From assembly GCA_963555755.3 (NCBI GenBank), contig OY820905.2, forward strand, positions 2,272,001-2,336,000: a stretch of 64,000 nt of DNA, written 5' to 3'. The translations under genes were made by a program, and so were the position numbers. Shown here piece by piece: positions 17,106 to 61,499 of the stretch. The stretch comes from Nitrospirales bacterium. GTDB taxonomy: Bacteria > Nitrospirota > Nitrospiria > Nitrospirales > UBA8639. The notes beneath the pieces were generated by a model, which saw only the letters and a program-made list of their open reading frames with translations, had not been told where the DNA came from and did no database searches. Every line of letters starts with the position of its first letter. The first letter of the stretch is position 1.

Positions 17106-18191
17106 CTTGCTTATCCTGTTTGCACACCAACGTACTACCTATAGTAGATTGGCCGTAGATACATGAGCGCAATGATCCCAATCCCCGTTGTAATGGCCTC
17201 GATACGTGGGGCCGGGCACCTTCAGGCCGATACCCAATAGGGAAGCGAAAGCCGGCATCGGGTAAAAGCGACGGTTGAACCGGAATACGAATTCATTCAG
17301 AGAGGCCGACAGGTGTTGCGTGCTGACGCTATGGTGAGTTTCCATCAGCCCAGTCGTCAGATTCGAGAAGGCGATGTGGATCATAGGGAGGTGGATATCG
17401 GGTTTCTCGCGATCGCCATTGCGCATCATGGGCTCGTGCGCGTACCCCAATTGTGTCAGATTGTCGTAGCCGCCCCATCCGTCGGTGCGCACCCTGGCGC
17501 CCGTGACTACGCTCTCCTGCACGAACCCCGTGAGCGGTTTGGCCCCGCGGTTTGGCACGAGACACAAGCGCAACCTTCCTGCGTAAACGGCTCGGTGGGG
17601 CTGTTTGCCATCAACGCCGAGCGGCCGAGGGCGAACTTCGATGGCACCAGCAACCATCGATTGATGGTGGACGCCACGTCCTTTGCCCTTGGTGCGCCCA
17701 CCCCCCAGCGTTTCAGCCACCTCGACTGGCCAATCTGCGCCAATCCGGTCTCGGTTGGGGCGAACCATGCCAGCGCGGAGCTTGTGGAGCATCTGGAATG
17801 CGGTCTCGTAGCGAGTCAGTCCAAGCTGGCGCTGAAGCTGCACCACAGACACGCCGGGCGTTTGCATCGTCACCAGATACGCGCCCAAAAACCACGCCTG
17901 CAAGGGCGTCCTTGTCGCAGGCATGACGGTGCCAGCGGTCAGCGCCACATCACTGTGGCAATGTCGGCATCGAATCATCCGTGGTCTCGTGACGATGCGC
18001 TGCGCCTTGCTGCTCACGCCGCACGTTGGGCACGCAAATCCGTCCGGCCACCGGATGGCCGCAAGAGAGGCCGCACACGCCATTTCGCTGGGACACATCT
18101 GTTGCAACTCAAGCAACGACTGGGGGTGGCGAATGTCCATGACGATCATACCCTCCCTATAGCGTGAGGGTGTGTCAACCGGATAAGCAAG
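17106..18191 (-). mobile_element. IS1595-family element, mutated copy 1 (transposase ~18149-17139)
   Basis: IRs CTTGCTTATCC...GGATAAGCAAG; 8-bp TSD GTGTGTAC; RWPDGF Zn-ribbon, TDG, LNEFVFRFNRR; first catalytic D reads as A (VEVAET). Confidence 0.92.
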
Positions 18192-18369
18192 GTGTGTACT
18201 TCTTAGAATTATACCCCTACGTACATAAACAAATTCATCTTTACTGGTGACACACGTCACAGATTTTTCCGACACGTTGGTAGTAAGTAGACATACATGC
18301 ATCTCATACGGCATGAGGCATTGACCCCAATTCACTCCGCACGCTTTAAGACAAGCAGAAGGAGGTTCC

Positions 18370-18744
18370 ATGAGCGTGAATGCTTCGCTAAGGAAGGCAA
18401 GGCTGGAATCCACACGGTCCGTGAGGAAGACCACTACCCCTCGGATACGCATACGGCCAGTTGTGGCATTAGCCCCTAATGGCTCTGTAGACCATTGCTT
18501 GAAATGTCAAGGCTGGATGATTGTCCAAGAAATCGATTTTTCTAAAAAAATCGAAATGCGTTGCCTGAATTGCGGATGGCAACCTCAGTATGGCGAGCGA
18601 GTGATTCAAGAAACGGAGGAAGCACGCTCGATTAGGAGATTTACCTCGGAGCTATTTGGAGGGGTAGCCGGGGATCTTCCAACTACTCCCCTAGAGGCTT
18701 CGTTTCAACAAATTGATTTTTCGAAACGCGCGAAGCGCCGGTAA
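18370..18744 (+). CDS. Small Zn-ribbon protein (CLKC...CLNC)
   Basis: AGGAGG RBS; two CxxC motifs. Confidence 0.75.
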   Translation: MSVNASLRKARLESTRSVRKTTTPRIRIRPVVALAPNGSVDHCLKCQGWMIVQEIDFSKKIEMRCLNCGWQPQYGERVIQETEEARSIRRFTSELFGGVAGDLPTTPLEASFQQIDFSKRAKRR

Positions 18745-18902
18745 GGGCTCGCGCAAGAATAACTTCCCTTGTTTGGGTGTTGAGGCACCTGTCTGGCAAG
18801 GCGCGAGGACTGCGCATACTCCTCGTATGGAAAGGACGAGCAACGCCGCCAGACGGGATGGATCGACGCCCAAACATGGGAAGTTATTCTTGCGCGAGCC
18901 CT
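18744..18902. mobile_element. MITE family B copy at a stop codon
   Basis: TIRs as above; begins within the TAA of the upstream gene. Confidence 0.85.
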
Positions 18903-19016
18903 AAGCACGAGGGAGAACCGTCCGCCTCGTTCTCTTAACGGCACTGGTCTACCCCAGTGGCGTTCTTCTTGTGTCTCAAAATTTTGGGGACAAAGGTCCT
19001 TTCCCATTTTTGTCTC

Positions 19017-19076
19017 AGGGGCTGGGGACACAACATGCCATCGCGAAGCCGGAGGCATGTTGTGTCCCCAGCCCCT
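19017..19076. terminator. Perfect 23-bp inverted repeat (hairpin, possibly a terminator)
   Basis: AGGGGCTGGGGACACAACATGCC...GGCATGTTGTGTCCCCAGCCCCT. Confidence 0.5.
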
Positions 19077-19208
19077 TTCCTCTTGATACTTGAGTGTGTT
19101 GGCTAGTTTTCGCCAATTTGATATTTTTATTCAACAGATCCTTACTGTCATAGCCGATCACGAAGAAGGAATTCGAATTATTTTTACCTCCTTCACTCGG
19201 AGTGACTC

Positions 19209-20177: not shown

Positions 20178-20199
20178 CCATGAGACGGTTGCATCAGCC

Positions 20200-24925: not shown

Positions 24926-24978
24926 CCGTGCTTTTAACCGTTTTCCGTTCTCCCCTTTCTTATTTCACAACACAATTG

Positions 24979-25778: not shown

Positions 25779-26873
25779 ATGACACCTGTCAATAGTGATC
25801 AAACGCTTTCCTCGTTGCCCGTTAAAATAATCCCCACCAAAAAAGGTGTCATCCTCAAGCGCGGATGCACCGAAGTACAAATTCGAGGGGAAAACATCGG
25901 TGCAATTATTGAGCAGATTTTCTCGATTTCAACAAAAAATAGGGTGACCAAAGACTTACTAGTAGAATACTTTTCCCCAGAAGTTCAGCCCGCTGTTGCC
26001 AAATTGGTCGATCAGTTCATTGAGCGCCGGTTTTTGGTTCCACATGCTTTTGACGATTCTCAAATGGAGTCTCATGAAGACAACACGGACATTTTTTATT
26101 GGCACTTCGATCAAACGAAAGCGGAAATCAGCCAACGATTGGATGCTCAGAAAATCACGATAGTTGGGGTCAATTACATTTCACGGCAACTTGCCATTTC
26201 CCTTAGTGAATCTGGGTTTACTCAGGTTGAAGTGGTCGACGAGCCTGGGTTACGAAATCTTCGGTTTTTCGACCCTCCCAGAGAATTACAGCTGCACCAT
26301 TGGCCGACTCCTTTGCGAACACCCGTAGCAATGAAACAGTGGGAAGCCGAGGCAGATCTCAACTCATTGGATTGCATTATTGCCACTTCAGATTTTGGTT
26401 CAGCTCCTATCCTGCGTGAATGGAACACGTATTGCATTCACCATAATCTTCGATTCTTTCCCATTGTATTGTCCAATATGATTGGCTACATCGGGCCACT
26501 CGTGATTCCACAAGAAACGGCCTGTTTCGAATGCCTCTTGGCTCGACAGAATTCGCATCTCAGTGACCCCAGCAGGAAACAGACAGTGGATCAGGTCGCC
26601 TTTGATAGCCAGAACATTGTAGGGTTCCATCCATCCATGGCGTCCATCTTAGGAGACATTGCTGCCATGGAGATGACCAAGTTCTATAGTCAATCCATGC
26701 CGTTGTGGAATGTGGGAAAACTCATCGAAGTGAACCTTTTGTCCTCTCGGATGACTCCCAGGAAAGTCCTGAAAATTCCTCGTTGTCCGGTTTGTAGTCC
26801 CTTACGCACACGTTCCGCTGTCACCCCTGACAAACCCTATTCACATTTTAGTTTTTCCCAGGCGCAATCATGA
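25779..26873 (+). CDS. TOMM leader-binding ocin-ThiF/E1-like cyclodehydratase partner
   Basis: wHTH-like N-terminus, YIGPLVIPQETACFECL, KVLKIPRCPVC. Confidence 0.88.
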   Translation: MTPVNSDQTLSSLPVKIIPTKKGVILKRGCTEVQIRGENIGAIIEQIFSISTKNRVTKDLLVEYFSPEVQPAVAKLVDQFIERRFLVPHAFDDSQMESHEDNTDIFYWHFDQTKAEISQRLDAQKITIVGVNYISRQLAISLSESGFTQVEVVDEPGLRNLRFFDPPRELQLHHWPTPLRTPVAMKQWEAEADLNSLDCIIATSDFGSAPILREWNTYCIHHNLRFFPIVLSNMIGYIGPLVIPQETACFECLLARQNSHLSDPSRKQTVDQVAFDSQNIVGFHPSMASILGDIAAMEMTKFYSQSMPLWNVGKLIEVNLLSSRMTPRKVLKIPRCPVCSPLRTRSAVTPDKPYSHFSFSQAQS

Positions 26874-28204
26874 TGATCACCCGGAACTCTTCATTTCACC
26901 GTCTTGCCAACATCGTGGATGACCTAGTCGATGAACACGTTGGCATAGTGAAATACGTCAAAGAATTCCGTCGGGAATCCGGAATGCCCGACTTCTTCTG
27001 CTATTACGCCAAGGCCTGTAACACCCTGGCCTTTGGCCCATTCAAAAATTTTTCGAATACCGGGGGGGCTTCTGCCTTTAGAGAACTTGCGATGGCCAAA
27101 GCCATTGGAGAGGCAGTGGAGCGTTATTGCTCTGCTATTTATGATAAAGAATCCTTGCCCTTGATTTCATTTCGTGATGCGTCATTCCCCTGCATCGTTC
27201 CAGAAGAATTTGCGTTGTATGACGATGAACAATATTGTCAACCGGATTTCCCGTATATTCCGTTTACCCACGCTACTCCTGCCCGATGGACCCCAACTAT
27301 TGATCTCACAACGGATGAGACCTGGTATGTGCCGGCGGCAACGGTGTTTATGCCCTTTTGGTATGACGAAAAAAATGGAGAGCCCCCCATTGTCCAACCG
27401 ATTTCTACAGGTTTGGCCTGCCACTGTAGTTATGAAGAAGCCGCAATTTCCGCGATTTGTGAGGTCATTGAACGGGATGCCTTCATGATGACTTGGCAAG
27501 CGTGTCTTTCCAGGCCTCAAATTCTTATCGATTCCTTGAGTCTCAACAACCAAGACCTGGTTTCTCGATTCGAGCGAACGGGAAATTCAATTTTTCTCTT
27601 CCATTTGGCTATGGATCATGATGTTCCCATAGTGTTGGCTGTAGCTCGGTGCTCTGCAGAAGACGGGCCTGCCTTGTGTTTCGCGGCTTCAGCAGATTTA
27701 GATCCGGAAGATGCCGTTCGAAAAAGTCTCGAAGAATTGGCTCATACCCGTCGGTTGGCCCAAGGATTAAAATCAAATTTGCCCAGTATTGTGGCCGAGG
27801 CCGATTTTGAGGCCGTCAGTCATCAGGATGCACACCTACGATTTTACGGGGACCATGTGAACAGTCACTTCGCCGACTTTCTTTTTTCCTCGGAGGACCG
27901 AGTGGCTTTTCAAGAAATCAAACGTCCATTTGAAGGTGACACTCAAAATAATCTCCGAGACCTGATTGACCAGGTTCGCTCTGTGAACCATCGAGTTCTG
28001 CTGGCTGATCTTACAACCTCCGACGTCGGTGATCTGGGGCTTTCGGTGGTTCGGGCGGTGATTCCGGGATTCCATCCGTTGTTTATGGGACATGCGATCC
28101 GCTCACTTGGTGGAACCCGATTATGGGAGGTTCCCCAACGCATAGGACACCCTGGTGTGACTCGGGAAGGAGGAGACAACCCGGCTCCTCACCCTTATCC
28201 GTAA
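26870..28204 (+). CDS. YcaO cyclodehydratase (azoline-forming type)
   Basis: KAIGEAVERY, STGLAC, EVIERDA, ELAH, VVRAVIPG, Pro-rich C-terminus PAPHPYP. Confidence 0.93.
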   Translation: MMITRNSSFHRLANIVDDLVDEHVGIVKYVKEFRRESGMPDFFCYYAKACNTLAFGPFKNFSNTGGASAFRELAMAKAIGEAVERYCSAIYDKESLPLISFRDASFPCIVPEEFALYDDEQYCQPDFPYIPFTHATPARWTPTIDLTTDETWYVPAATVFMPFWYDEKNGEPPIVQPISTGLACHCSYEEAAISAICEVIERDAFMMTWQACLSRPQILIDSLSLNNQDLVSRFERTGNSIFLFHLAMDHDVPIVLAVARCSAEDGPALCFAASADLDPEDAVRKSLEELAHTRRLAQGLKSNLPSIVAEADFEAVSHQDAHLRFYGDHVNSHFADFLFSSEDRVAFQEIKRPFEGDTQNNLRDLIDQVRSVNHRVLLADLTTSDVGDLGLSVVRAVIPGFHPLFMGHAIRSLGGTRLWEVPQRIGHPGVTREGGDNPAPHPYP

Positions 28205-28272
28205 ACCGTATCTCGTATTTCGTTCTTTCACGAGATGAGGACGACGTTTTTCTTAAAAAATGAGGTGATTTT

Positions 28273-29091
28273 ATGAATATGGATATATGGAATGAGTTGG
28301 TGCTCCCTTCCGCTACAGAGGACGTAGCTTGGGAGTTGTTTCACGAAAATTCAAAGCTTGGTCGGTATTTCGCAGCCTTGTCAGAAGAACAGGTGGTGCA
28401 AAAAACCAAAGAACTCCACGAGTCATTGCCCTATGAAGGGTATCCTAAGGTGGAATTACCAGCACTACTGGCAACTCCAACATCTTCGCTATACGAGGCA
28501 ATTCTGAATAGAATGTCTGTCAGAAATTTTGCTCCTCGCTCATTTTCATTAGAAGAAATTGCGACCTTGTTGCACTATGCCTATGGCACGACCCGGGATA
28601 ATGAGGGCACTAACCTTCCCAGGCCATTTCGAGCAGTTCCCTCTGGAGGAGCGCTCTACCCCTTGGAAATTTATTTTCATTGCGTGGACGTCAAAGGACT
28701 TGTCCCGGGGCTGTATCACTACAATGCGGCTGGTCATCATATTCGCTGCCTTAGCGAAGGCGACCAGCGAAAAACTATTGCCGAGTCCATCATTCAACCG
28801 GATGTGGCCTTGGAAAGTTCACTCATGATCTTTATTACCGCCATGTTTGAACGGACGGTTTTTAAATATGGAGACCGGGGGTACCGATTCACATTCCTGG
28901 AAGCGGGTCATGTGGCCCAAAATATGAATTTGATGGCCACGGCGCTCGAACTCGGATGCGTCAATATCGGAGGATTCTATGACCGGGATGTGGATGCGTA
29001 TTTGGGACTGGACGGCATCATGCATTCTACGATTTACCTCATGGCAATCGGAGAACCAACCTGTTCTGAGTCTATCGATGAAAAGACCTAA
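28273..29091 (+). CDS. SagB/ThcOx FMN-dependent azoline dehydrogenase
   Basis: RMSVRNF, RAVPSGGALYPLEIY, KYGDRGYRF, EAGHVAQN, IGGFYD. Confidence 0.93.
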   Translation: MNMDIWNELVLPSATEDVAWELFHENSKLGRYFAALSEEQVVQKTKELHESLPYEGYPKVELPALLATPTSSLYEAILNRMSVRNFAPRSFSLEEIATLLHYAYGTTRDNEGTNLPRPFRAVPSGGALYPLEIYFHCVDVKGLVPGLYHYNAAGHHIRCLSEGDQRKTIAESIIQPDVALESSLMIFITAMFERTVFKYGDRGYRFTFLEAGHVAQNMNLMATALELGCVNIGGFYDRDVDAYLGLDGIMHSTIYLMAIGEPTCSESIDEKT

Positions 29092-34435: not shown

Positions 34436-35356
34436 TCAATCAGACTTGGCAGATTGGGCAGACTTGGCAGACTTAGCAGACTGGTCAGATTTGGCACAAC
34501 GAAATCCCACGTTAGGTGAACGCGTAGACGGTAGGGCGCCATTGCGTGTGGCGGTCCGAAGAAGTTGAGGGCGGCTTCGCCACGACCCGCCGCGCACACT
34601 TTTATACCGCCCCACCTCGGAACCTGGAGGGTTCCGTTCAGGCATCCGAGGATAATAATCTTGTCCGAACCAATCATTCACCCACTCCCGCACATTGCCA
34701 GCCATATGACTGAGTCCGTAGGGACTTCGCCCTTCTTCAAAACTGTCAACCGCCGCAACAAGTGGGATTTGATGAACATGGTAGAGGCCCGAGACCGCGA
34801 GATCCGGATCTGGAGCTTTGCTACCCCAGGGAAATAAACTTCCATCCGTTCCGCGTGCCGCTTTTTCCCATTCCGCTTCCGTTGGAAGCCTTTTTTTATG
34901 GACACGGCAAAACCTAACGGCCTCCTCCCAATCCATAAACATGGCCGGCCATCGCGCCATGACATAATCCGGAAGAACATGCACATCGATCAGATGCCAA
35001 ATAAGGTGACGGAGTTTGTGCGGAACAGGGAGCTCTTGTTGGTGTAGAAAGGCCAAATACTCTGCCATGCTCACTTCATCGCGATCGATAGAAAATGTAT
35101 CCAGCCAGATTCGTCGTTGCGGAAACTCCGTGTCGTCGTACTGCGTTTCCAATCCAAACGGATCATCATCTTTCCGGATCGTCCCCATCAGAAACCAGCC
35201 TTCGGGAATGTCGATTATCGGAGAAGGCTGAGCAAGCTTGGCAATTTCTTGAAGATGGCCTTTTAACTCTGGAGGCGGATCAGCTTCAACCTTGAGCGCA
35301 AAAGAAATAAAAGGATTCGCCAGAAATAGCACCCACACGATAACTTGAATTCCCAT
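34436..35356 (-). CDS. Formylglycine-generating enzyme family (SUMF1/FGE-sulfatase domain) protein, 5' end overlapped by IS30
   Basis: RLPTEAEWEKAARG, MAGNVREWV, RGGSW, GFRCA; the available ATG lies inside the IS30 left IR. Confidence 0.85.
   Translation of the reverse strand: MGIQVIVWVLFLANPFISFALKVEADPPPELKGHLQEIAKLAQPSPIIDIPEGWFLMGTIRKDDDPFGLETQYDDTEFPQRRIWLDTFSIDRDEVSMAEYLAFLHQQELPVPHKLRHLIWHLIDVHVLPDYVMARWPAMFMDWEEAVRFCRVHKKRLPTEAEWEKAARGTDGSLFPWGSKAPDPDLAVSGLYHVHQIPLVAAVDSFEEGRSPYGLSHMAGNVREWVNDWFGQDYYPRMPERNPPGSEVGRYKSVRGGSWRSRPQLLRTATRNGALPSTRSPNVGFRCAKSDQSAKSAKSAQSAKSD
34440..34497. repeat. Nonamer tandem repeat (CAGACTTGG-like, ~6 units)
   Basis: Encodes the C-terminal tail KSDQSAKSAKSAQSAKSD. 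Confidence 0.8.
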
Positions 35357-36432
35357 AATAAGTGCACCACCTTCACGGTTGGCTAGCTGGTATATTCTCT
35401 GGCCGACCAAAGGAGGCGGTCCCAAGATGACACAACGTTATACTCAGCTGACCGAACCTGAGCGCTACCACTTGTACACGATGCGAAAGCCAACCACACC
35501 CTTTCGAGAGATTGCGAAGGGAATGGGGCGATCCCACACCACCCTGAGTCGGGAGGAAACGCGGAATACCGGCCAGCGGGGCTATCGCGACCAACAAGCC
35601 CAGCAGAAGGCGGGCCAGCGACACACGGACAAGCCCAAAGCCGTGAAGCTGACGGAGTCGGTGCTGGCGTATAGTCACGAGAAACTTCACGCCTGGTGGA
35701 GTCCAGAGCAAATATGTGGACGCGTGGGGCTCGAGCAGGGCGTCTCGTTACGCCCAGAAACGATCTATCGCGTGGGGCTGAAAGACCCGCAGCAAGGCGG
35801 GCAACTCTATCGGCACGTGCGCCACCACGCCACGCCGTACCGCAAGCGCTATGGCCGCAAGGAATATCGGGGACGCATCCCGGGCCGAGTCGATATTGCC
35901 GAGCGTCCGACCGTCGGGGACACCCAAGCACGGGTCGGCGATTGGGAAGCCGATTTAGTGATCGGCCGCGGGCATAACGGGGCCATCGTGACGCTGGCCG
36001 AGCGACGGTCTCGGCTCTATCTGGCGCTGCCGAGCGTGCGCAAAACCGCGGACTGGACCACACGGGCGATCCCCTCACTGTTCGCGGCGTTTAAGGACTG
36101 GACCCCCACCATCACCTCTGACAATGGCCGAGAGTTCAACGGCCACGCCACCATTGCCAAGGCCTTGGACTGCCAGGGCTTCGTTGCTCGCCCGTACCAC
36201 AGGTGGGAGCGAGGCTTACACGAGAATAGCAACGGGCGGCTCCGACAGTATTTTCCCAAGGAGATGCCACTCGACACGGTGTCCACGGAAGCGGTCACTG
36301 CCGCCGTGGAGGCCATGAATCATCGACCCCGGAAATGCTTGGGGTTTTAAACGCCTTGGGACGTGTTCTCGCGACTCACTCAATCAAATATTCAATTGAA
36401 AACCTGTGGTGCACTTATGGGTTGAATTCGCC
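35344..36432 (+). mobile_element. IS30-family element, mutated (transposase 35427-36350, premature stop)
   Basis: IRs GAATTC...ATAAGTGCACCAC / GTGGTGCACTTAT...GAATTC; WSPEQI, GDWEADLV, DNGREF, WERG, RQYFPK, NHRPRKCLGF. Confidence 0.9.
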
Positions 36433-36531
36433 GATTTAAACAATCGACACTATTTGGTTTTTTAATTTAAGGAACTTTTGGTCTCATAATTATTAGTTTT
36501 CGGCCGCCGGTTCGATTTCTACCGGGCCCGA

Positions 36532-36937: not shown

Positions 36938-37949
36938 TATGCCTTCCCATTTAACTAAGGTTGCTTCAGTTTATTGAATCCCAAGGGTTTTGAGCTGCTG
37001 GTCAGGATTTTCAACAAACTCTGGAAGGTACTCATTGGAGTCTCACGGCGGTTATAGCGAAAGACAAACTCATCAAGATAGTGTTGCAGGTATTTTGAAT
37101 CCACTCCATGGTGAATCCCGTTCAGCCAGGTCTGCAGATTGCCGAACGCTCTATGGATGTGTGGAGCGTGCTTCCCAGCACTTGCTGGGTCACCCTGGGT
37201 CCGTCTCAGGTGTTCGTATCCTGCCAAGGCTTTTGCCGAGTATCCCTTCCAACCATCGGACTTGATCTTACTGCCCTCAGCGACATGGCTATTGAGGAAT
37301 GCTTTGATCTCGTTCTCTCCAGCGTCTTGAAGAATCGCTAATCGTAAACGCCCTGCTTTCTCTCGAAAGTGATCCCCTTGTGTGTACGTGACAATTTCTA
37401 CGGCTCCGGCTATTAACGTCTTGGTTTTCGCTTTCGCGACGCCACGGCCCGTTTTGCCTTTTACCGGTCCACCGATATGGGTTTCATCGGCTTCAACTGT
37501 TCCTGCGAGCCGTTCACGGTTCTGTCGTACCATTCCTCGTCGCAATCTGTGGAGCAAATACCAGGCGCTATCCACCTTCTTGATACTGAGTTGACGCTGC
37601 AATTGCACAGCACTGATGCCAGGTGTGTGCGTGGAGACGAAATAGGCAGCCCAAAACCAAAGCCGTAGCGGCAAGTGCGATCTATGCATCACTGTGCCGC
37701 TTAGCGGTGATGTCTGTCTATGACACGACGAACACTCAAACCGGAAATATTTTTTGAGCCACCAACCACCGCGATGACCGCAAGCTGGACACATAAACCC
37801 GTCTGGCCACCGAATCGCCCGCAAGTACTCGAAGCACGCTTCTTCGGTGTGGAACCTAACAGAAAAATCCAAGATATCAGCAGCATACCCTGTGTCCATA
37901 GTCCAGCAGACTAGTCTAGGGACTAACCTTAGTCAAATGGGAAGGCATA
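36938..37949 (-). mobile_element. IS1595-family element, apparently intact (transposase 37899-36955)
   Basis: 23-bp IRs TATGCCTTCCCATTT(A/G)ACTAAGG; 8-bp TSD TAATTTCT; VEADET, SDG, LDEFVFRYNRR. Confidence 0.93.
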
Positions 37950-38004
37950 TAATTTCTTTTGTACGGCTATCCACTGGTTCGACCGGACCGGAGGAAACCC
38001 CTTC

Positions 38005-38889
38005 TTCAGCCAGGTCTGCAGATTGCCGAACGCTCTATGGATGTGTGGAGCGTGCTTCCCAGCACTTGCTGGGTCACCCTGGGTCCGTCTCAGGTGTTCG
38101 TATCCTGCCAAGGCTTTTGCCGAGTATCCCTTCCAACCATCGGACTTGATCTTACTGCCCTCAGCGACATGGCTATTGAGGAATGCTTTGATCTCGTTCT
38201 CTCCAGCGTCTTGAAGAATCGCTAATCGTAAACGCCCTGCTTTCTCTCGAAAGTGATCCCCTTGTGTGTACGTGACAATTTCTACGGCTCCGGCTATTAA
38301 CGTCTTGGTTTTCGCTTTCGCGACGCCACGGCCCGTTTTGCCTTTTACCGGTCCACCGATATGGGTTTCATCGGCTTCAACTGTTCCTGCGAGCCGTTCA
38401 CGGTTCTGTCGTACCATTCCTCGTCGCAATCTGTGGAGCAAATACCAGGCGCTATCCACCTTCTTGATACTGAGTTGACGCTGCAATTGCACAGCACTGA
38501 TGCCAGGTGTGTGCGTGGAGACGAAATAGGCAGCCCAAAACCAAAGCCGTAGCGGCAAGTGCGATCTATGCATCACTGTGCCGCTTAGCGGTGATGTCTG
38601 TCTATGACACGACGAACACTCAAACCGGAAATATTTTTTGAGCCACCAACCACCGCGATGACCGCAAGCTGGACACATAAACCCGTCTGGCCACCGAATC
38701 GCCCGCAAGTACTCGAAGCACGCTTCTTCGGTGTGGAACCTAACAGAAAAATCCAAGATATCAGCAGCATACCCTGTGTCCATAGTCCAGCAGACTAGTC
38801 TAGGGACTAACCTTAGTCAAATGGGAAGGCATATAATTTCTTTTGTACGGCTATCCACTGGTTCGACCGGACCGGAGGAAACCCCTTCT
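38005..38889. repeat. Second unit of an apparently exact 884-bp tandem duplication (partial IS1595 plus 56 bp of flank)
   Basis: 37121-38005 matches 38005-38889; the ORFs repeat with an offset of 884. Confidence 0.9.
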
Positions 38890-47614: not shown

Positions 47615-48700
47615 CTTGCTTATCCTGTTTGCCCACCAACGTACTACCTATCGTAGGGTGGCCGTAGATACATGAGCGCAATGATCCCAAGCCCCGTTGT
47701 AAAGGCCTCGATACGTGGGGCCGGGCACCTTCAGGCCGATACCCAATAGGGAAGCGAAAGCCGGCAGCGGGTAAAAGCGACGGTTGAACCGGAATACGAA
47801 TTCATTCAGAGAGGCCGACAGGTGTTGCGTGCTGACGCTATGGTGAGTTCCCATCAGCCCAGTCGTCAGATTCGAGAAGGCGATGTGGATCATAGGGAGG
47901 TGGATATCGGGTTTCTCACGATCGCCATTGCGCACCATGGGCTCGTGCGCGTACCCCAATTGTGTCAGATTGTCGTAGCCGCCCCATCCGTCGGTGCGCA
48001 CCCTGGCGCCCGTGACTACGCTCTCCTGCACGAACCCCGTGAGCGGTTTGGCCCCGCGGTTTGGCACGAGACACAAGCGCAACCTTCCTGCGTAAACGGC
48101 TCGGTGGGGCTGTTTGCCATCAACGCCGAGCGGCCGAGGGCGAACTTCGATGGCACCAGCACCCATCGATTGATGGGGGACGCCCCGTCCTTTGCCCTTG
48201 GTGCGCCCCCCCACCAGCGTTTCAGCCACCGCGACTGGCCAATCTGCGCCAATCCGGTCGGGGTTGGGGCGAACCATGCCAGCGCGGAGCTTGTGGAGCA
48301 TCTGGAATGCGGTCTCGTAGCGAGTCAGCCCAAGCTGGCGCTGAAGCTGCACCGCAGACACGCCGGGCGTTTGCGTCGTCACCAGATACGCGCCCCAAAA
48401 CCACGCCTGCAAGGGCGTCCTTGTCGCAGGCATGACGGTGCCAGCGGTCAGCGCCACATCACTGTGGCAATGTCGGCATCGAATCATCCGTGGTCTCGTG
48501 ACGATGCGCTGCGCCTTGCTGCTCACGCCGCACGTTGGGCACGCAAATCCGTCCGGCCACCGGATGGCCTCAAGATAGGCCGCACACGCCATTTCGCTGG
48601 GACACATCTGTTGCAACGCAAGCAACGACTGGGGGTGGCGAATGTCCATGACGATCATACCCTCCCTATAGCGTGAGGGTGTGTCAACCGGATAAGCAAG
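47615..48700 (-). mobile_element. IS1595-family element, mutated copy 2 (same element as 17106-18191)
   Basis: Same IRs and length (1086 bp); about 25 substitutions relative to copy 1; no matching TSD. Confidence 0.92.
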
Positions 48701-48844
48701 GTTCCAACCATGGAACAGGGAAATTCTAAGTTGAAAATTCAAGAGGACGAAGAAGGCTTAAAAAACAACGCAGAGAGTGGAGGCAGAGTAATTTCCATTG
48801 AAAACGGTTGGCCATGCCAAGGCATATCCTCTGCACTCACCCCA

Positions 48845-50161
48845 GAGCTATTGTCAAATCTAGTGTCTGAAGCGTTGCTCACGCGGCGACTGGGTCCGTG
48901 GTTCTTTCTTCGATCCCATCAGTACAGTGAATGCCGGCGATGACTTTGGGCAACTCTCGGAATCCTCGCCATCGTCTCCACGTTTTCTCCGCACACTGTC
49001 CCAACTTAACCATCATGTGCAACATGCCATCTCGCGTGAGACATCCCGTTGTGCGGACCGTCCGATGCCGAATCGTTCCAACCGTCGATTCGATAGGATT
49101 GGTCGTCCGCAGACTCGGCCAATGGGCAGCCGGAAACGCAGAGCACAGCAGCAACTCCTCTCGATCTTTCTGCAAACAGGCCGGGGCCTTGGGATATTTG
49201 AGCTCATAGGTGTTGAGAAACAGGTCAACGGCTTGCTCCGCGAGTCCTTTGGTCTCAGACTGCCAGATGTCTTGTAAGGCTTGCTTGGCTTTCGAGTGCA
49301 CACTTTTCGGCAGCGCATTTAGGACATTCTGTGTCTTGTGGCACCCACAGCGGTGGGCGCGCGTACCGGGGAAGATTTCCTCCAACGCAGCCCAGAATCC
49401 TAGCGCCCCATCGCCAATGGCCACGGCCGGCGCGTTCAGGCCGCGGGCTTTCAGAGGCAACAGGACTTCCCGCCAACTTTGGGTGGACTCACGAATCCCG
49501 TCTTCCATCGCTAAGAGATGTTTCTCTCCGGAGGCATTCAGGCCGATCACGACCAATGCACACAAGCGCTGTTGCTCCGCGCGTACGCCACGGTAGATGC
49601 CAGCGACCCAGATAGAAACCCACTGGGCGGCATCGAGTCGCCGTTGTCGCCAGAGGGTCTACTCCTCCCGCCAGCTCTGCTTGAGCCGCGCCACCGTACT
49701 CGCGGACAGCCCCTTGGCCTCTGGGCCCACGAGGGCTTCCAGGGCCGGCTGCCTCTCCCCGGTGGAGATCCCTGTCAAGTACAACCACGGGATCGCCGCT
49801 TCCAAGCTGGCTGTCTTGCGTACAGACGGGGGAACCAGCGCCGAGTGAAACGTCACTGGAATGCCCTGGCCGCTGAGGACAACCCTCGCATGTCCCTGCT
49901 CATCCTGCTGCTCTCCATCGGCCGCCAAGAGCTCGGCCACCTCCGCTTTCAGGGCTTGCGCGAGAAGCTGTTGGGCGCCACTCCGAATCACATCTGTCAG
50001 TGCATCAGTCTTTCCTCGATCTTCTTGCTCTGGTTTGCTACATTCCTGCATCGTGGCGTCTCTCCTATGTGGTTGAGTTGGGGATGTTTTGCAACACCCA
50101 GTTCAACCCGAGACGCCGCGTGTTTTCAACTGATCCTAGACACTACTTTCAAGTATAACTC
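48845..50161 (-). mobile_element. IS256-family element, degraded (frameshift, internal deletion, many missense changes)
   Basis: WLYLTGISTG, LSASTVARLK, IGDGALGFW, RTTNPIES; imperfect IRs GAG(C/T)TAT...TAGTGTC. Confidence 0.9.
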
Positions 50162-50238
50162 AAAAACTGAATAGGCAAAAAGGCTGTGCATTGAGCATGA
50201 AATGAGATCAATAAAGGAAGACAACTCGTAAAATCAGA

Positions 50239-50266
50239 TAAAGTTTCATTGACTTCCTGCCGATCT
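50239..50266 (+). promoter_or_regulatory. Sigma28 (FliA)-like promoter
   Basis: TAAAGTTT-N12-GCCGATCT upstream of the HD-GYP gene. Confidence 0.55.
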
Positions 50267-50308
50267 CTAGATGAGTGGGTAAATGGAGTTCATTGAATAA
50301 ATACCAAC

Positions 50309-51589
50309 ATGGCTTTTCACCCAGCAACACGGGAAGACTTACGAATTGGCTTGTATATCAAGTTAGTCGGGAATTGGTTTGCCCATCCCTTTTCTAAGAG
50401 TAGCTTCAAAATTAAAGAGGAGAAGGACCTGGCCACCCTCCGGGCCCTTCGCAACTACAAAATTCTGTATGATCCAGAACAGTCCGATCCTTTGCCATCT
50501 TCAGAAATGGAAGATGGCAGCTGCGAAGATGTAAACACTTCTCTTGACCCGTCATCAACTCCAATTGAAGAAAATCACCAAAAGGAAATTTCTCCGTACA
50601 TCAATAGCCCAGGAAAGCTCCAAGCCAATCAGGCAAGGCTAGAGAAACTCAAGGGGGCTGAAAAGGACTACCAAGAGGTTCTCCAGCAAAATAAAGATAG
50701 TATTCGAGAGGTAAAAGCAGGGTATGCCAAAGGGGTCATAAAGGTCGAAAACTTGGTTAATACCCTCGGGGAGATTCTGGATCAAAATGGGACCTTAGTG
50801 ACCCTCATGAATTTCACCGGCACCCAGGAAACTGGCGACGATTTTAACCACCATTCTCTGAATGTGTGTATGTTGTCTATGGTGCTTGGGCAAGGCTTGG
50901 ATTTACCTCAAGACGAGATCAAGACGTTAGGCATCGGGGCCCTTTTCCATGATATTGGCGAACTAGAGGGAGAAGGAATGTTCATCCAAAAAGAGTCTAA
51001 GATGAACAAACACGAACAACAGTTTTTACGGAACCACCCCAAAAATGGAAGAAAAATGGTTGAGGGATTTGGGTTTCCCAAACCCATTCTAGAAATTATC
51101 TCGCAACATCACGAACGGTTAAATGGAATTGGATACCCCGAAGGGCTCAAAGAAGATTCCATTCACTTACTGTCCAAAATTGTCATGGTGGCGGATGCGT
51201 ATGATGAACTGTGTACTAATCCACAATCTGAAAAAAGCCTGACTCCTTATGAAGCCATCAGCAGAATCTATGCCAAGCGCCAGGATGAATTTTGGGAGAA
51301 AGCGGTTTTAGCCCTTATTCAAAATCTAGGAGTGTATCCCCCCAGTTCAATAGTAGAAATGTCTGACGGTGTCTTCGGAATGGTCACCAGGATTAACCTC
51401 CTTGATCGTATGCGTCCCACCGTGATGCTCTATAATGCTGATATTCCCAGAGAGGAAGCCATCATTGTGGACCTTCAACAGGAACCCAGTGTGACCATTA
51501 AACTTAGCCTGCGCCCAAGGGATGTCCCAAGGGAAATCTGGAAATACCTCAATCCTCGGGGAATGATCAGCTACTTTGCCTATCACTGA
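50309..51589 (+). CDS. HD-GYP c-di-GMP phosphodiesterase with a DUF3391-like N-terminus
   Basis: LRIGLYI...WFAHPF, HSLNV, LFHDIG, HHERLNGIGYP, VADAYD, GVYPP. Confidence 0.92.
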   Translation: MAFHPATREDLRIGLYIKLVGNWFAHPFSKSSFKIKEEKDLATLRALRNYKILYDPEQSDPLPSSEMEDGSCEDVNTSLDPSSTPIEENHQKEISPYINSPGKLQANQARLEKLKGAEKDYQEVLQQNKDSIREVKAGYAKGVIKVENLVNTLGEILDQNGTLVTLMNFTGTQETGDDFNHHSLNVCMLSMVLGQGLDLPQDEIKTLGIGALFHDIGELEGEGMFIQKESKMNKHEQQFLRNHPKNGRKMVEGFGFPKPILEIISQHHERLNGIGYPEGLKEDSIHLLSKIVMVADAYDELCTNPQSEKSLTPYEAISRIYAKRQDEFWEKAVLALIQNLGVYPPSSIVEMSDGVFGMVTRINLLDRMRPTVMLYNADIPREEAIIVDLQQEPSVTIKLSLRPRDVPREIWKYLNPRGMISYFAYH

Positions 51590-51687
51590 GCCACCTCCAG
51601 CCCCTAAACCTCAAGGGCACCTCTAAAAACCGTCCTTTTCCGTGATGGCGGCGTCAGCCGCGTGCTCAAATCCTCATGTAACCCCTT

Positions 51688-53436
51688 TTAGGCACTCGGT
51701 GTCGGGATCAAACTTTTCTGGGGAGCGCTTTGTGCTTTCGAGGCTGGTTTTTCGGATGAAGGTTTACTCGGAGTGAGCAACGCTTGCCCACGGAGCTTGC
51801 GGTGGTAGGTGATGGCGAAGCGGTGGGCTTCATCACGAATGCGTTGAACGAGGTGGGATGCTGATGACGAAGGAGAAAGGATCAGTGGCTCACGAATGCC
51901 TGGTGAATAGATTCGCTCTTCTTTTTCGCCTTTGGCTTTGGCCAATCCGATTATCGGCACATGCTTGATCCCCAAATTCGTGAGTGCCTCAATCGCGGCT
52001 CCAAGCTGACCGATGCCGCCGTCGATCAGAATCAAGTCTGGAAGGGGCAAGCCCTTGTCGTTATTGGCACTCAGTGAGCCGCCATACCGACGGTTAACGA
52101 CTTCGTGCATGCTGGCAAAGTCATTGGCGCCTTCAACGGTTTTCACTTTGAAGCGCCGGTAGTCGGCTTTTTTCATTTGCCCGTCTTCCCACACCACCAT
52201 CGAGGCCACAGAATCCGTGCCCATAGTATTCGAAATATCAAATCCTTCGATGCGGCCTAATGCCTTGGGAAGGCGAAGGAGTTGTTGAAGCTCCTTGGCT
52301 TCTTTTTCTTCGACTACGCCTTTTCGCAAGTGCTCCGCGATGGCGGCGACGGCATTCTCTTGTGCGAGTTGCAACAGCTGATATTTGACTCCGCGCTCTG
52401 GGGTGAGTATGCGAACGGCTTGCCCCTTTTTGTCTGACAACCATCGTTGGATCAACTCCCGTTCCCCCAATTTCGAGGGGATCAACACTTCCTTTGGCGG
52501 CAACATGTCCTTGTTGTAGAACTGTTCAATCGTCGACCGAATGAGCTCTTCATCAGAGGCCTCTTTTGTATCTGCCCAGAAAAAGTCCTTTCGCCCAATG
52601 AGCTGCCCTCCTCGCACAAACAAGAGTTGCAAATCGGCTGCGGGACCCATGCGTGCCAAGCCCATCACGTCCTGATCCACCGGACCAATTTGGGCGACCC
52701 GTTGTTTTTCCAAGGTCTTGGAGACTTTCGCAATCCGATCCCGCAAACGAGCCGCCTCTTCAAACTCCTCCCGATCAGCGGCGGTTTCCATGTCCGCACG
52801 TAGCCCATCGAGTAATTCTCGGTCTCGGCCTTCTAAAAAGAACCGGACTTGTTTGACGATGCGATGATACTCTTCTTGGGATTGATTACCGGTACACGGC
52901 GCCATGCAGCGTTTGATTTCAAACTCGATGCATGCCCGGTCGGCTGTGCCATCGATATTGATTTTACAGGTGGCCAACGGGAAGACCTTCTTGATGACTT
53001 TTAACGTTTCACGCAACGCCCCGGCTGGTACGTACGGACCAAAATACAACGCACCGTCGCGTTTCACCCGCCGCACGATCGATAGCCGCGGGAAATGTTC
53101 TTTGATTGGAAGCCGAAGGTAAGGGTAATGCTTATCATCACGAAGTACGACATTGAACCGCGGACGATGGCGCTTGACCAAATTGCTTTCCAGCAAGAGC
53201 GCTTCGAGTTCCGATTTGGTCACAATGGTTTCGATGTCCTGCACGAGCCCAATTAATACTCGGTTTTTGGGACTCAGGTCGGTCCCTTTTAGAAAATAGG
53301 ATCGCACTCGATCGGTCAAGACCCGCGCCTTGCCGATGTACAGGATTTCTCCCTGCTTTCCTTTCATCAAGTACACGCCAGGCTGCTTGGGAAGATGATC
53401 GAGAGTGGCTTGGAAGTCGGAGGCGGGTTGTGTCAT
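51688..53436 (-). CDS. uvrC: Excinuclease ABC subunit C (no C-terminal HhH domain visible)
   Basis: PGVYLM, YIGKA, EALLLE, YFGPY, FEEAARLRD, IEGFDIS, LILIDGG, RDEAHRFAI. Confidence 0.95.
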   Translation of the reverse strand: MTQPASDFQATLDHLPKQPGVYLMKGKQGEILYIGKARVLTDRVRSYFLKGTDLSPKNRVLIGLVQDIETIVTKSELEALLLESNLVKRHRPRFNVVLRDDKHYPYLRLPIKEHFPRLSIVRRVKRDGALYFGPYVPAGALRETLKVIKKVFPLATCKINIDGTADRACIEFEIKRCMAPCTGNQSQEEYHRIVKQVRFFLEGRDRELLDGLRADMETAADREEFEEAARLRDRIAKVSKTLEKQRVAQIGPVDQDVMGLARMGPAADLQLLFVRGGQLIGRKDFFWADTKEASDEELIRSTIEQFYNKDMLPPKEVLIPSKLGERELIQRWLSDKKGQAVRILTPERGVKYQLLQLAQENAVAAIAEHLRKGVVEEKEAKELQQLLRLPKALGRIEGFDISNTMGTDSVASMVVWEDGQMKKADYRRFKVKTVEGANDFASMHEVVNRRYGGSLSANNDKGLPLPDLILIDGGIGQLGAAIEALTNLGIKHVPIIGLAKAKGEKEERIYSPGIREPLILSPSSSASHLVQRIRDEAHRFAITYHRKLRGQALLTPSKPSSEKPASKAQSAPQKSLIPTPSA

Positions 53437-53525
53437 TTGGTCAAGCCTCGTGATGCGTGATCCGTGATGGGTAATGCGTAAAAAAATTCGTTTCTCCACC
53501 CTTCACGCATCACGCTTTACGTCTT

Positions 53526-55599: not shown

Positions 55600-55701
55600 C
55601 CTCGCCACCCTCATATTCTTTCTCTTCACACCTTCTTTTCGCCACCGTGTTTCGTGTACCCTCGGCAGTTGAACTTCAGGGGACCTCCCGAAATCCTTAC
55701 C

Positions 55702-58020: not shown

Positions 58021-58193
58021 GAGAAAATAACTTGGGCAATATCGCGCCAAGATTTGGGTCGGATTTGGACGGAACGATTGAGAAAAACTCGAGGCATAGC
58101 ACAGCTATGGTGAGGGTTTTTCGATTGAGGCCCGTTCAAAGATGGCCCGAAGATTGGATGCGAGATTGATCAAGTTATTTTCTCGCAGGTCCT
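58012..58193. mobile_element. MITE family E (AGGACCTG(A/C)GAGAAAATAACTTG...CAAGTTATTTTCTCGCAGGTCCT)
   Basis: Copy at 61857-62038 and a partial one at 58241-58293; both full copies are followed by the same partial D element. Confidence 0.8.
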
Positions 58194-58435
58194 AAGAGCT
58201 TGCGCGGACTTTTGTGATCCAACTGCTGCTTCTAGGTTCCAAGATGGCCCGAAGATTGGATGCAAGATGTCCAAGTTATTTTCTCTCAGGTCCTAAGGCT
58301 CAATCCTAACTTGGCTTAAAATTCCATCCACTCGATAACACCTCAACATTTTCCTCGGCCTTGGCCTTGGCATCGACCTCTCGTCTTTGTGCCGTTCACT
58401 CCCCGTTCTCCAAGGAGAAATTTCTCACAGACTAT

Positions 58436-58462
58436 TAAGTGGATAGCCGTACTCGCCGATAA
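58436..58462 (+). promoter_or_regulatory. Sigma28 (FliA)-like promoter
   Basis: TAAG-N15-GCCGATAA. Confidence 0.7.
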
Positions 58463-58507
58463 ACCGGGAAAGTAGGACAATACTTAAACCCGAAGGGAGG
58501 TGATTCC

Positions 58508-58600
58508 ATGGCAGCAGCAAAGAAACCAGCGAAGAAAGCCACCGCGCGTGCGAAAAAAGCACCAGCTCGGAAACAAGCTAGCAGCGCGAAGCGCTGCTAA
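58508..58600 (+). CDS. 30-aa Lys/Ala-rich histone H1-like peptide
   Basis: GGGAGG RBS; MAAAKKPAKKATARAKKAPARKQASSAKRC*; below the ORF-track cutoff. Confidence 0.75.
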   Translation: MAAAKKPAKKATARAKKAPARKQASSAKRC

Positions 58601-58630
58601 TTCAATAAGGTAGACTTACCTTATGACCAA

Positions 58631-58668
58631 GGCCGGGGAATGACGGAAGTCTTCCCCGGCCATTTTCT
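58631..58668 (+). terminator. Intrinsic terminator
   Basis: GGCCGGGGAA...TTCCCCGGCC followed by ATTTTCTT. Confidence 0.65.
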
Positions 58669-58963
58669 TCTTCCCACTTCTCTTTCACGAACACCAACCC
58701 CTAGCCAACCATTTCCTGAACTTTCTTCCACTGGATTCGCATACGCTCCTCCATGGGGCGCGCCCCTCGATAGGTTGGCGAGAACCCTATGGCTTGCGAT
58801 ACCCATTGAGTTTCTGTGAACGGGTATGTGATAAATGCCTGTGCATTCTCACAGCCCGGTTCGAGAAGAACTGGGACCGCGTGTCGTACTTCACCTGTTT
58901 AGGTTCATCGAAGAAGTACACACATTATAGGAAGCGCTACACAAGAGAGGACTTTTCACCAGC

Positions 58964-59815
58964 ATGACCATCAATACTCAAACCCAACTGTGTGGAGTGC
59001 TTGGCAATCCCGTCGAACATTCCCTTTCTCCGGCCATTCACAATGCGGCATTTCAGCACCTCGGGCTGAATTATGTGTATCTCGCCTTTCGCGTTGAACA
59101 GGTGAAGGAAGCGATTCAGGGCATTCGAGCGTTAGGAAACCTTCGGGGATTCAGCGTGACGATTCCGCATAAAGTCTCGGCCATGACCTACTTGGATACA
59201 ATCGATGACACCGCCAGACATATTGGGGCGATCAACACAATCGTCAAAACCGATGGAACGTTAACCGGGTATAACACCGACGCATCAGGTGCGCTGCAGG
59301 CTCTTCGTCAGGCGAAAACGGCGCTCGATGACCAACGTGTCTTGATCTTGGGTTCTGGCGGTGCGGCTCGGGCGATTGCTTTTGGTCTGGCCCTTCATGA
59401 ACGGCTAGCTGGGTTGACCATTCTCGGGATTGTCAATGATGAACGTGCAAACCTTGTCACCGATCTTCGCAAGGGCACCACCGTGGCGATAGAAGAGGCT
59501 CACTTGAGTGAGAAGACCCTAGGGCCAGCCATCGAGCAGGCCCAGGTGCTCATTCATTGCACCCCGCTCGGAATGCATCCAAAGGTCGATCACACCTGCG
59601 TCCCTCAAGACCTTCTCAAAGCTCACCTGACGGTTATGGATATCGTCTATAATCCACGGGAAACTCGCTTGCTTCGGGAAGCCCGAGAAGTGGGATGCGC
59701 CACGATTCCCGGCCTCGAAATGTTTCTTCACCAAGCGGTTACCCAATTTGAGCTCTGGACCGGTCAATCCGCGCCCACTGACGTGATGCGCGAAATTTTA
59801 GAGGCACAGTTTTGA
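58964..59815 (+). CDS. aroE: Shikimate dehydrogenase
   Basis: HSLSPAIHN, SVTIPHK, GAINT, NTD, GSGGAARA, DIVYNP, GLEMFLHQA. Confidence 0.95.
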   Translation: MTINTQTQLCGVLGNPVEHSLSPAIHNAAFQHLGLNYVYLAFRVEQVKEAIQGIRALGNLRGFSVTIPHKVSAMTYLDTIDDTARHIGAINTIVKTDGTLTGYNTDASGALQALRQAKTALDDQRVLILGSGGAARAIAFGLALHERLAGLTILGIVNDERANLVTDLRKGTTVAIEEAHLSEKTLGPAIEQAQVLIHCTPLGMHPKVDHTCVPQDLLKAHLTVMDIVYNPRETRLLREAREVGCATIPGLEMFLHQAVTQFELWTGQSAPTDVMREILEAQF

Positions 59816-60330
59816 TGAATTTGATTCTCATTGGATATCGAGGGACGGGAAAGAGTACGGTGGGACGGTTGCTCGCCTCCCGCTTGGGATGGGAAACCGT
59901 ATCCACGGATGCGCTGATTATCCAACGAGCGAAGTTACCCATTCCAGAGATTGTGTCCCAATTTGGATGGGATCATTTCCGGGATTTGGAATCAGCCGTC
60001 TGCCAGGAATTGCGGGGAAAAGACCATTTGATCATCGACACTGGAGGCGGAATCATTCTCAGGGATGTGAATGTTGAGACGTTGAAACATTACGGGTTGT
60101 TGTGTTGGTTAACGGCAACCGTCGAGACAATTCGTCGTCGTATTGCCGGTGATTCTCAACGTCCGTCGTTAACGAGTGGCAAGACGTTTATTGAAGAAAT
60201 CGAAGAGGTGTTGCAGGAACGAACGCCAAAGTACCGAGCCGCCGCAGACCTTATCGTGGAGACGGATTCCGGTTCGGCAGACCAGATCGCGGATCAGGTG
60301 TTGGCGAAGTTTCGAGAGATGAAGGGCTAA
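59812..60330 (+). CDS. aroK: Shikimate kinase
   Basis: GYRGTGKST, FRDLE, DTGGG, RPSL, ERTPKY. Confidence 0.93.
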   Translation: MMNLILIGYRGTGKSTVGRLLASRLGWETVSTDALIIQRAKLPIPEIVSQFGWDHFRDLESAVCQELRGKDHLIIDTGGGIILRDVNVETLKHYGLLCWLTATVETIRRRIAGDSQRPSLTSGKTFIEEIEEVLQERTPKYRAAADLIVETDSGSADQIADQVLAKFREMKG

Positions 60331-60379
60331 GGGTTCGCGCAAAAATACCTCCCCCTGTTTGGGTGCTGAGACGCCTGTC

Positions 60380-61499
60380 TAGTGTTTAATTGCTAATTTA
60401 AACTATATTATGTAATCTTGGCCTTATGCCGAGAACTGCACCCCACATAGAGATCCCCCCAGAGGACAAGAGAACGTTACGAAACCGGACAAAGAGCCGA
60501 ACATTGCCCAAGCAAACGGTGGACCGAGCGAAAATGATTTTGGAGAGCGAAGCGGGAAAACCGGTCAAACAGATCGCGCAGGAACTCACCACGTACCCCA
60601 ACAAAGTCATTTATTGGCGGCAACGCTATGTCGAGAATGGGCTAGCCGGCCTTCAGGACCAGCCCCGCTCGGGTCGACCACCCAAGTATGGTAAAACGTT
60701 TCGCAATGATCTGCTCAAGGTGTTAAGCCAACCGCCGCCCCAAGGGTTGGCCCTGTGGGACGGGCCTGCCGTGGCCGAGGAGTTGGAGGCACCCGTTGAC
60801 GCGGTCTGGAAAGTGTTACGCAAAGAAGGCATCAATCTGCAACGGCACCGGTCATGGTGTATCAGCACCGATACAAACTTTGCCAGCAAGGCCGCGGATA
60901 TTGTGGGGCTCTATTTAGCCCCGCCGGTCAACGCCATCGTGCTCTGTGTGGATGAAAAACCCAGCATTCAGGCCCTGGAACGAAAAACCGGCTATATCAA
61001 AACAGAGAGTGGAAAAGTCATCCGCGCCTACCAAAGCACCTATACACGACATGGCACGCTCAATCTCTTTGCTGCGCTGGAAGTCTCAACAGGAAAAATT
61101 CAGGGCAAAGTGACGCCAGAGAAAAAGCGAACGGATTTTCAAGCCTTTCTGGATGAAATTGTGGAGGAATACTCTCCAGCCCAAGAGATTCACGTCGTGT
61201 TAGATAATGACGGCACCCACAAGAAGAACGACGAGTGGCTCGCACGCCATAACAATGTCCACTTTCATTTTCCCCCGACATCCGCAAGCTGGCTCAATCA
61301 GGTCGAAATCTGGTTTGGGATCTTTTCCCGGAAAGCTCTCCGGGGCGCTTCCTTTGCCAGTCCTCACCAACTGAGACAGCGTATCGAAGATTTTATCGAA
61401 CACGACAACCCAAACGCCAAACCATTTAAATGGCGGAAAAGGGAAGTCAAGGGATCGCAGCTTAAAGATAATATAGCTAACTTAACAAATTAAACACCA
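60380..61499 (+). mobile_element. IS630-family element (transposase 60426-61493)
   Basis: IR GTGTTTAATT/AATTAAACAC; PRSGRP, CVDEK, RHGT, LDN, SWLNQVEIWF. Confidence 0.92.

Follow-up and report, generated by a model that had tools for sequence, protein, structure and literature searches.

Repeat-induced point mutation (RIP), a fungal process, changes C:G to T:A in a dinucleotide context and requires a duplication, and diversity-generating retroelements use a template repeat to replace the adenines of a short target, on one strand, by any base. The neutral decay of bacterial DNA is usually rich in transitions and AT-biased and, to our knowledge, no bacterial process mutates mobile elements selectively. 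Here we consider the insertion sequences (IS) in a stretch of 64,000 nucleotides from a Nitrospirales bacterium (assembly GCA_963555755.3; contig OY820905.2, hereafter C1; C1:2272001-2336000, hereafter the window), the decayed copies of which carry an excess of A:T>C:G transversions. We have little doubt that this excess is real and confined to the elements, and it likely reflects an undescribed mutation process that is restricted to mobile DNA in this bacterium and several of its relatives. The genome (4.62 Mb, 99% complete, in two contigs) contains many repeats, those of at least 300 bp covering 17% of C1. The IS copies of the window are (window coordinates):

17106..18191, minus strand: IS1595 copy 1, 1086 bp, flanked by a perfect 8-bp target duplication; VEVAET in place of VEVDET, so that the catalytic Asp is lost
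35344..36435, plus strand: IS30, one of four copies, with an early stop near the C-terminus
36938..38834, minus strand: young IS1595 of another subfamily, a full copy and a 5' partial copy in tandem, serving as the lesion-free internal control
47615..48700, minus strand: IS1595 copy 2, with 24 A:T>C:G among 29 substitutions relative to an intact copy at C1:2157947; its flanking 8-mers are unmatched
48843..50168, minus strand: IS256, ends approximate, without a near-identical partner in the genome (nearest 87%)
60379..61500, plus strand: IS630, one of three copies, all of which share DND and FPPT
62748..64000, plus strand: IS110, extending past the window edge, with no A:T>C:G relative to the family majority

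The earlier note on this DNA, made from the sequence alone, had counted 25 substitutions between the IS1595 copies at 17106-18191 and 47615-48700, namely, 16 of the A<->C or T<->G type, 7 transitions and 2 others, with no gaps, and this count was reproduced exactly. The polarity of the changes can be fixed because a third copy, at C1:2157947, retains the conserved motifs VEVDET, NLKTWL and YLNEF; the lesions that had been proposed in VEVDET, LKTWL and YLNEF are thus borne out by intact versions in the same genome. Relative to this copy, the window pair shares 19 changes, 15 of them A:T>C:G, and copy 2 has a further 10 private ones (9 A:T>C:G), which brings its total to 24 of 29, or 5.4% of the 447 A/T sites. 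Copy 1 has 15 private changes, including 3 A:T>C:G, 6 C>T and a further 4 that look like C>A but are probably lesions shared by the other two copies. Majority-rule polarity with three or four copies mislabels the intact one, so that C>A counts obtained in this way are partly reversed A>C. Since copy 1 has lost the catalytic Asp and yet has a perfect target duplication, damaged copies must still have inserted or been converted.

The lesions claimed for the other families were mostly upheld at the codon level. In IS30, comparison with same-genome relatives shows TAT>TCT (TYDNG>TSDNG), NEN>HEN (AAT>CAC context) and GLLRQ>GRLRQ (CTC>CGG context); HEN and GRLRQ are common to all four copies and TSDNG is found in two, the sharing of lesions being mosaic. 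In IS630, DNY>DND and TPT>PPT occur in three copies of three. For IS256, QRCW>HRCG, ESTF>ESTV, RRL>RRW and FY>CS stand, but AAHWP is no lesion, being present also in the 87% relatives; altogether, of the 20 single-step changes that the window IS256 has at conserved residues, 16 are A:T>C:G and none is a transition. Two elements had been described as undamaged. This is correct for the IS1595 at 36938, whose family of about 45 near-identical copies has 8 private changes in 40,660 sites, but the IS110 family is partly affected (18 nonsynonymous A/C-type differences versus 11 transitions). Further closely spaced pairs of the 45-copy family are found in the genome; such tandem or close pairs suggest dimer or circle intermediates.

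Mosaic sharing of many lesions, together with an intact mutY, speaks for biased gene conversion. MutY acts on A:G mismatches, and its repair of heteroduplex A:G to C:G would let A:T>C:G alleles spread and resist reversion. Conversion creates no mutations, however, and the private lesions in IS256 and in a single-copy ISL3 described below need a raised mutation rate; moreover, intact copies beside damaged ones remain unconverted. As the sole cause, biased conversion is largely refuted and must be regarded as very unlikely, although it may contribute to the sharing of lesions.

Short reads commonly contain A>C and T>G errors, and contexts such as GGTGG>GGGGG do occur among the lesions, so that sequencing or polishing error in repeats has to be considered. 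The read check that the earlier note had called for shows that contigs of three short-read runs from two studies, which may include the source sample, carry the window letters at high depth. One contig of depth 280 spans 47779-48702 and differs by a single letter, and the IS256 positions 48925, 48927 and 49456 show no alternative letter at 35-155-fold depth, whereas a sediment run has A, T and T there; sediment runs contain close strains of the organism. Because the short-read contigs contain the lesion letters, assembly error is excluded, and, with lesions common to copies at separate loci and present in independently assembled genomes, the probability of a technical origin is negligible.

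The bias extends to most element classes of this genome. In nearest-neighbour comparisons for 116 repeat references, the ratio of A/C-type differences to transitions is about 4:1 in many IS families and 0.1-0.8:1 in short repeats and host duplications. Splitting the differences by codon effect strips the dilution from older, selected divergence, and the nonsynonymous ratios then are 34:3, 14:2 and 10:6 in three IS256 families, 25:3 and 13:6 in IS30, 27:6, 13:2 and 6:0 in IS1595, 21:4 and 18:11 in IS110, 30:20 and 17:7 in IS6, 6:1 and 10:5 in IS630, 25:8 in one family of group II introns and 7:10 in another, 22:19 in IS1634, 2:4 in an IS3-like pair and 2:5 in an IS1182-like pair, as compared to 4:9, 19:23, 7:10, 6:13 and 1:10 in host duplications (some family names are from Pfam or NCBIfam; the IS110, IS6, IS3, IS1182-like and second intron labels were read from N-termini). 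Decayed copies of IS256, IS30, ISL3, IS630, IS110, IS6 and group II introns are A:T>C:G-biased, with individual IS256 copies carrying 13 private A:T>C:G versus 0 or 4 transitions. The ISAs1-type transposases encoded at two loci, L034 and L037, carry a DruA-like domain at the N-terminus; one of these families has 33 copies.

The lesions fall in both coding orientations, with a mild excess at coding A in ISL3 (9.6% versus 6.6%), and show no replichore bias (129 versus 136). No sequence motif was found at the lesions: trinucleotide rates differ at most about threefold, in a pattern that is unlike between two data sets, with CTT mildly enriched (40 of 975 sites versus a mean of 2.5%; 21 of 192 versus 8.4%). 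The nonsynonymous to synonymous ratio is about 272:34 by hand count and the neutral expectation 6.5-11.6:1; since the nonsynonymous share fits this expectation, the lesions accumulate neutrally. Frameshifts are scarce among the element changes.

The clearest case emerged from a blind scan. The genome under study (G000) was aligned with 78 of the roughly 390 contigs of its sister genome G005, over 385,180 bases of non-repeated DNA, and a further relative, G006, was used to polarise changes (40 contigs and 4 loci; 36,997 common sites). When these 385 kb of non-repeated DNA were scanned against G005 in segments of 400 bases, 18 segments were flagged, the top five of which belong to one single-copy ISL3, C1:3186452-3187876; against G006, 9 of 1754 segments were flagged, 5 of them in the same element. 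The ISL3 copies of G000, G005, G006 and G190 carry 29, 37, 29 and 22 private A:T>C:G changes, respectively (648 A/T sites each), and 14, 4, 12 and 23 private transitions. Over the four genomes, private A>C:A>G is 117:12, versus 101:170 at polarised four-fold and intergenic sites (Fisher p 6e-26). The lesions are uniform along the element, right to its ends; the copies span two genera, and their flanks differ between G000 and G005. At residues conserved in 107 distant ISL3 homologues, 7 of the 9 deviations in G000 can be explained only by A:T>C:G and 12 of the 13 in G005 are compatible with it, whereas the distant set itself is led by transitions, except for the two proteins P0070 and P0102 (9 and 7 compatible deviations).

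A second, badly decayed ISL3 (L026, C1:2535340-2537120) reaches a G+C content of 69%, versus 51% for the genome. Nested in it is a non-coding, ISL3-derived element of 310 bp, which occurs 17 times, in many cases between clear 8-bp target duplications, and shows 18 A>C versus 6 transitions. This element can be compared with short repeats found in the window:

7205-7438, 8677-8848, 12449-12627, 15319-15487, 22751-22944 and 57998-58304: six hairpin-rich short repeat families, 42-166 copies

In these six high-copy families, A>C amounts to 0.5-1.1% per A/T site and transitions to 0.5-1.6% per site, which is near background, though the families are conserved in the genus and hence imperfect neutral controls. 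As the 310-bp element is hit and the six other short repeats are not, nor other repeats of a similar length (300-380 bp), the identity of the element outweighs copy number or coding capacity. Several short repeats are 90-98% alike in other species of the genus, core genes being 79-88% alike; only 2 short repeats are nested in IS copies, each with copies of 99.4-100% identity elsewhere.

The near-identical ISL3 in two genera demonstrates that elements travel, and the mosaic sharing in IS30 and in the miniature ISL3 copies indicates recombination between copies. The elements might, accordingly, have passed through short-lived mutT-null lineages or through another host or vector and returned by transposition or recombination, with the linked core DNA purged; confinement to element ends would be expected of such import. 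We consider it unlikely, however: mutT is present in 16 of the 17 relatives searched, mismatch-repair mutators should likewise add transitions and frameshifts, which are scarce here, neighbouring copies on one chromosome hold separate private lesions, and equally shared short repeats are near background. A weak further point is that viral contigs yielded no close relatives of two test elements, the viral and plasmid collections containing only distant ones.

The host DNA shows nothing of the kind. The controls in the window are:

26870..28204, plus strand: YcaO-family host gene, with 2 deviations at 140 conserved positions, neither of them A:T>C:G
50163..53438, no strand assigned: flank right of IS256, with uvrC; transition-rich, ordinary differences from close metagenome contigs

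In the comparison with G005, A>C, C>A and transitions number 670, 706 and 3503, respectively, at four-fold sites and 255, 241 and 993 at intergenic sites. On the polarised G000 branch, the four-fold sites show 34 A>C on 1450 A/T sites (2.3%), 33 C>A, 66 A>G and 100 C>T; the equality of polarised A>C and C>A rules out a cyclic equilibrium flux that would mask a general bias. Gene-free stretches of more than 500 bp and aperiodic fast-diverging segments have ordinary spectra, and a repeat-free 20-kb region compared with four sediment runs has no C/G excess (26, 42, 42 and 51 versus 35, 41, 34 and 49 in reverse). The nonsynonymous changes in 38 broken non-IS genes (90 A>C, 110 C>A, 297 transitions; the ISL3 row removed) are likewise ordinary, although many of the 39 genes initially classed as broken are probably start-site or end artefacts, so that true non-mobile pseudogenes are thinly sampled; host genes disrupted by IS yielded no usable control. 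Element flanks are ordinary in the 2,160 bases near three elements and the one 1.5-kb flank that were covered.

These data bear on one of the two readings offered in the earlier note, a MutT-type mutator acting on all unselected DNA. The spectrum is that of mutT loss, and a genome-wide mutator, steady or episodic, could be masked in host DNA by selection or recombination; four-fold A>C is about fourfold over A>T (34 versus 9). But mutT, mutM, mutY and mutS are intact by sequence, and a plain mutator is rejected on this ground. The mutT gene is an intact 135-aa ORF with a MutT box that lies behind a short mutY in an arrangement as in relatives. Furthermore, the branch on which a four-fold A>C of 2.3% has accrued is much longer than the IS copies with 5% lesions are old, the four comparisons with close strains show no excess, and selection on G+C cannot shift A>C:A>G from 10:1 to 0.5:1. 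The mutator reading therefore falls as to four-fold sites, intergenic and aperiodic DNA and the 38 broken genes, all of which are transition-rich, and is highly improbable in any masked form. The mutY gene at C1:1134236-1135414 has no C-terminal domain, and mutT follows it directly, the same being seen in relatives.

The process appears to depend on the host. Two groups of IS256 (27 and 29 copies) were scored at conserved residues, using best-scoring copies only, among which kin are not independent. The ratios of A:T>C:G to transitions are 18:2, 21:4, 20:2 and 16:0 in this genome and 15:6 in G005; in a second family, they are 22:0 in G386, 12:3 in G264 and 16:9 in G108. Intermediate hosts are G230 (17:14), G244 (6:4) and G070 (7:6), and ordinary decay is found in G034 (3:22), G064 (0:8), G214 (1:6), G112 (3:10) and G042 (4:6); most other copies have too few changes for a call, and eleven IS1595 copies in G016 are identical and hence give no spectrum. 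As the spectra differ by host, the process is host-dependent and not a property of the element sequence.

Such host dependence, with decayed IS256 transition-rich in G034 and G214 and A>C-rich in G386 and G264, would be expected of a dedicated host defence that recognises any class of mobile DNA and mutates adenines or thymines, i.e. a functional analogue of RIP. Every element class is affected whatever its transposition chemistry, single copies without an intact partner continue to gain lesions, and catalytic residues are destroyed, all in favour of this view. There is, however, no candidate enzyme or guide: Argonaute was not found in the genome, and the 45 spacers of a CRISPR-like array with 46 repeats (C1:1338481-1341799) have no full-length match outside the array in the genome, only two matches of 17-23 bases, and no motif marks the lesions. 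The most numerous families are spared, lesion-bearing copies still spread, and the nonsynonymous to synonymous ratio is neutral. A defence of this kind is conceivable but doubtful, and the wider claim that bacteria of several phyla own an unrecognised defence that ratchets any mobile element to death via A:T>C:G seems to us about equally doubtful. Mutagenesis aimed at mobile elements, the other reading of the earlier note, thus holds as a description, given the confinement; a RIP-like defence does not follow from it, in view of the chemistry, the single-copy ISL3, the near-background 45-copy family and repeats of 140-380 bp, and the failure to find a responsible host gene.

The explanation that we tentatively favour, at somewhat less than even probability, is that element DNA is synthesised anew, repeatedly and outside normal replication, from an unsanitised nucleotide pool. 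The activity of a transposase, recombinase or maturase, either the element's own or that of an intact relative, would set off gap filling or copy-out synthesis from one element end to the other; starved or oxidatively stressed cells are the probable setting. Copy-out transposition of the IS256, IS30 and IS3 families requires host synthesis (PMC7780238). The chemistry would most likely be incorporation of 8-oxo-dGTP opposite A: near-pure A:T>C:G on both strands in a weak context is what 8-oxo-dGTP is known to produce (PMC3556519; 10.1101/2022.10.21.513255), and Pol IV incorporates oxidised dGTP (PMC3901139). Pol IV and a lexA-imuB-dnaE2 cassette are present in the genome; at the latter locus (L019, C1:2175889-2181632), a short repeat apparently lies between lexA and imuB. 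A second candidate, incorporation of dUTP followed by bypass of the abasic site, is considered in view of the failure to find a dUTPase in this order: the trimeric dUTPase/dCTP deaminase family PF00692 has no match in any of the 26 genomes searched, and the dimeric PF08761 none in the present genome, though MazG-type substitutes may exist. This route would need a uracil glycosylase, the one candidate for which is a family 4/5 UDG-like motif, and a polymerase that inserts C opposite abasic sites. The outcome would be a ratchet that inactivates transposases without frameshifts and raises the G+C content of old copies.

The spectrum, its confinement to elements, its presence on both strands, the neutral and gradual accumulation, the inheritance of lesions into new insertions and the recurrence in other species are established by the data above; the local synthesis itself we infer, and several observations weigh against it. 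The single-copy ISL3 of G000 has 29 private lesions without an intact partner in the genome. One-pass patches would give same-strand runs of lesions, and these are absent (68 of 141 versus 69.6 expected); nor is clustering significant (14 versus 9.3 close pairs, p 0.056, under an A/T-site null in 8 copies), an apparent excess under a uniform null (37 versus 20) having shrunk under this one. In young expanding families, 264,185 sites contain 65 private changes, 17 of them A:T>C:G, and these families are so nearly clean that the ordinary jump must be accurate. All element chemistries are affected, including the presumed cut-and-paste IS630, IS1634, IS5 and ISAs1. High-scoring Y-family matches, taken to be Pol IV, were obtained in G264, G386 and G108 but in none of G034, G064 and G214; the sorting is uneven, as such a match is present in G112, where decay is ordinary, and missing from G230. 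The dUTPase is missing also in lesion-poor hosts. A low-copy family of a transition age similar to that of the young high-copy families has 7 A:T>C:G among 10 changes; since the high-copy families are nearly clean and low-copy ones of similar age are not, neither copy number nor the normal jump can be the trigger.

Some observations on the assembly and the window stand apart from the above. The contig C2 (14 kb) copies ordinary chromosomal genes of C1:4141231-4153174 at 99.98%, which is probably assembly redundancy. At 39003-39004, outside any IS, the window reads CC and three runs of the organism read GG, probably an assembly error. The stretch 25779-29091 is a thiazole/oxazole peptide maturation cluster with SagC-, YcaO/SagD- and SagB-like genes.

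A search of the open-access literature did not turn up any description of bacterial A:T>C:G hypermutation that is confined to elements. Relative to other changes, this GC-raising transversion proceeds at least 10 times faster within elements than it does in host DNA; the hosts are mutT+ and belong to two families. Whether by-product or defence, the process implies that IS families can die without frameshifts, and the dating and annotation of IS copies is distorted, as ruined transposases look intact. The signature is sharp enough to be screened for across genomes to find the responsible genes.

How, then, does this decay compare with the known systems? Stress-induced Pol IV mutagenesis likewise involves local synthesis outside the replisome that is able to use oxidised dGTP (PMC3901139), and Pol IV is present here, but its expected spread into flanks and its frameshifts are not seen. 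The route via dUTP, UNG and abasic-site bypass (SBS17b) yields the same T>G, and the order apparently has no dUTPase and CTT is mildly enriched here; that route, however, requires the eukaryotic REV1 and is sharply context-dependent (10.64898/2026.08.21.746158), and it is not known to target mobile elements. With the diversity-generating retroelements, the process shares targeted adenine mutagenesis in bacteria, but here only C results, on both strands and over whole elements. The likeness to RIP lies in heavy point mutation of mobile DNA only, on both strands, with transposases ruined and frames often open; the differences are the A:T>C:G change, the lack of a motif, the bacterial host and the gradual load, as well as, apparently, the involvement of an ISL3 and an IS256 that are now single-copy where a 45-copy family and repeats of 140-380 bp are spared. 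A mutT mutator gives the same near-pure A:T>C:G on both strands, without frameshifts and in a weak context, but mutT appears intact here, the bias is confined to elements instead of being genome-wide, and the reported 3'-A preference of mutT is inconsistent in our data. The phenomenon thus resembles MutT-type mutagenesis in its lesion and RIP in its targeting, but belongs to neither class.

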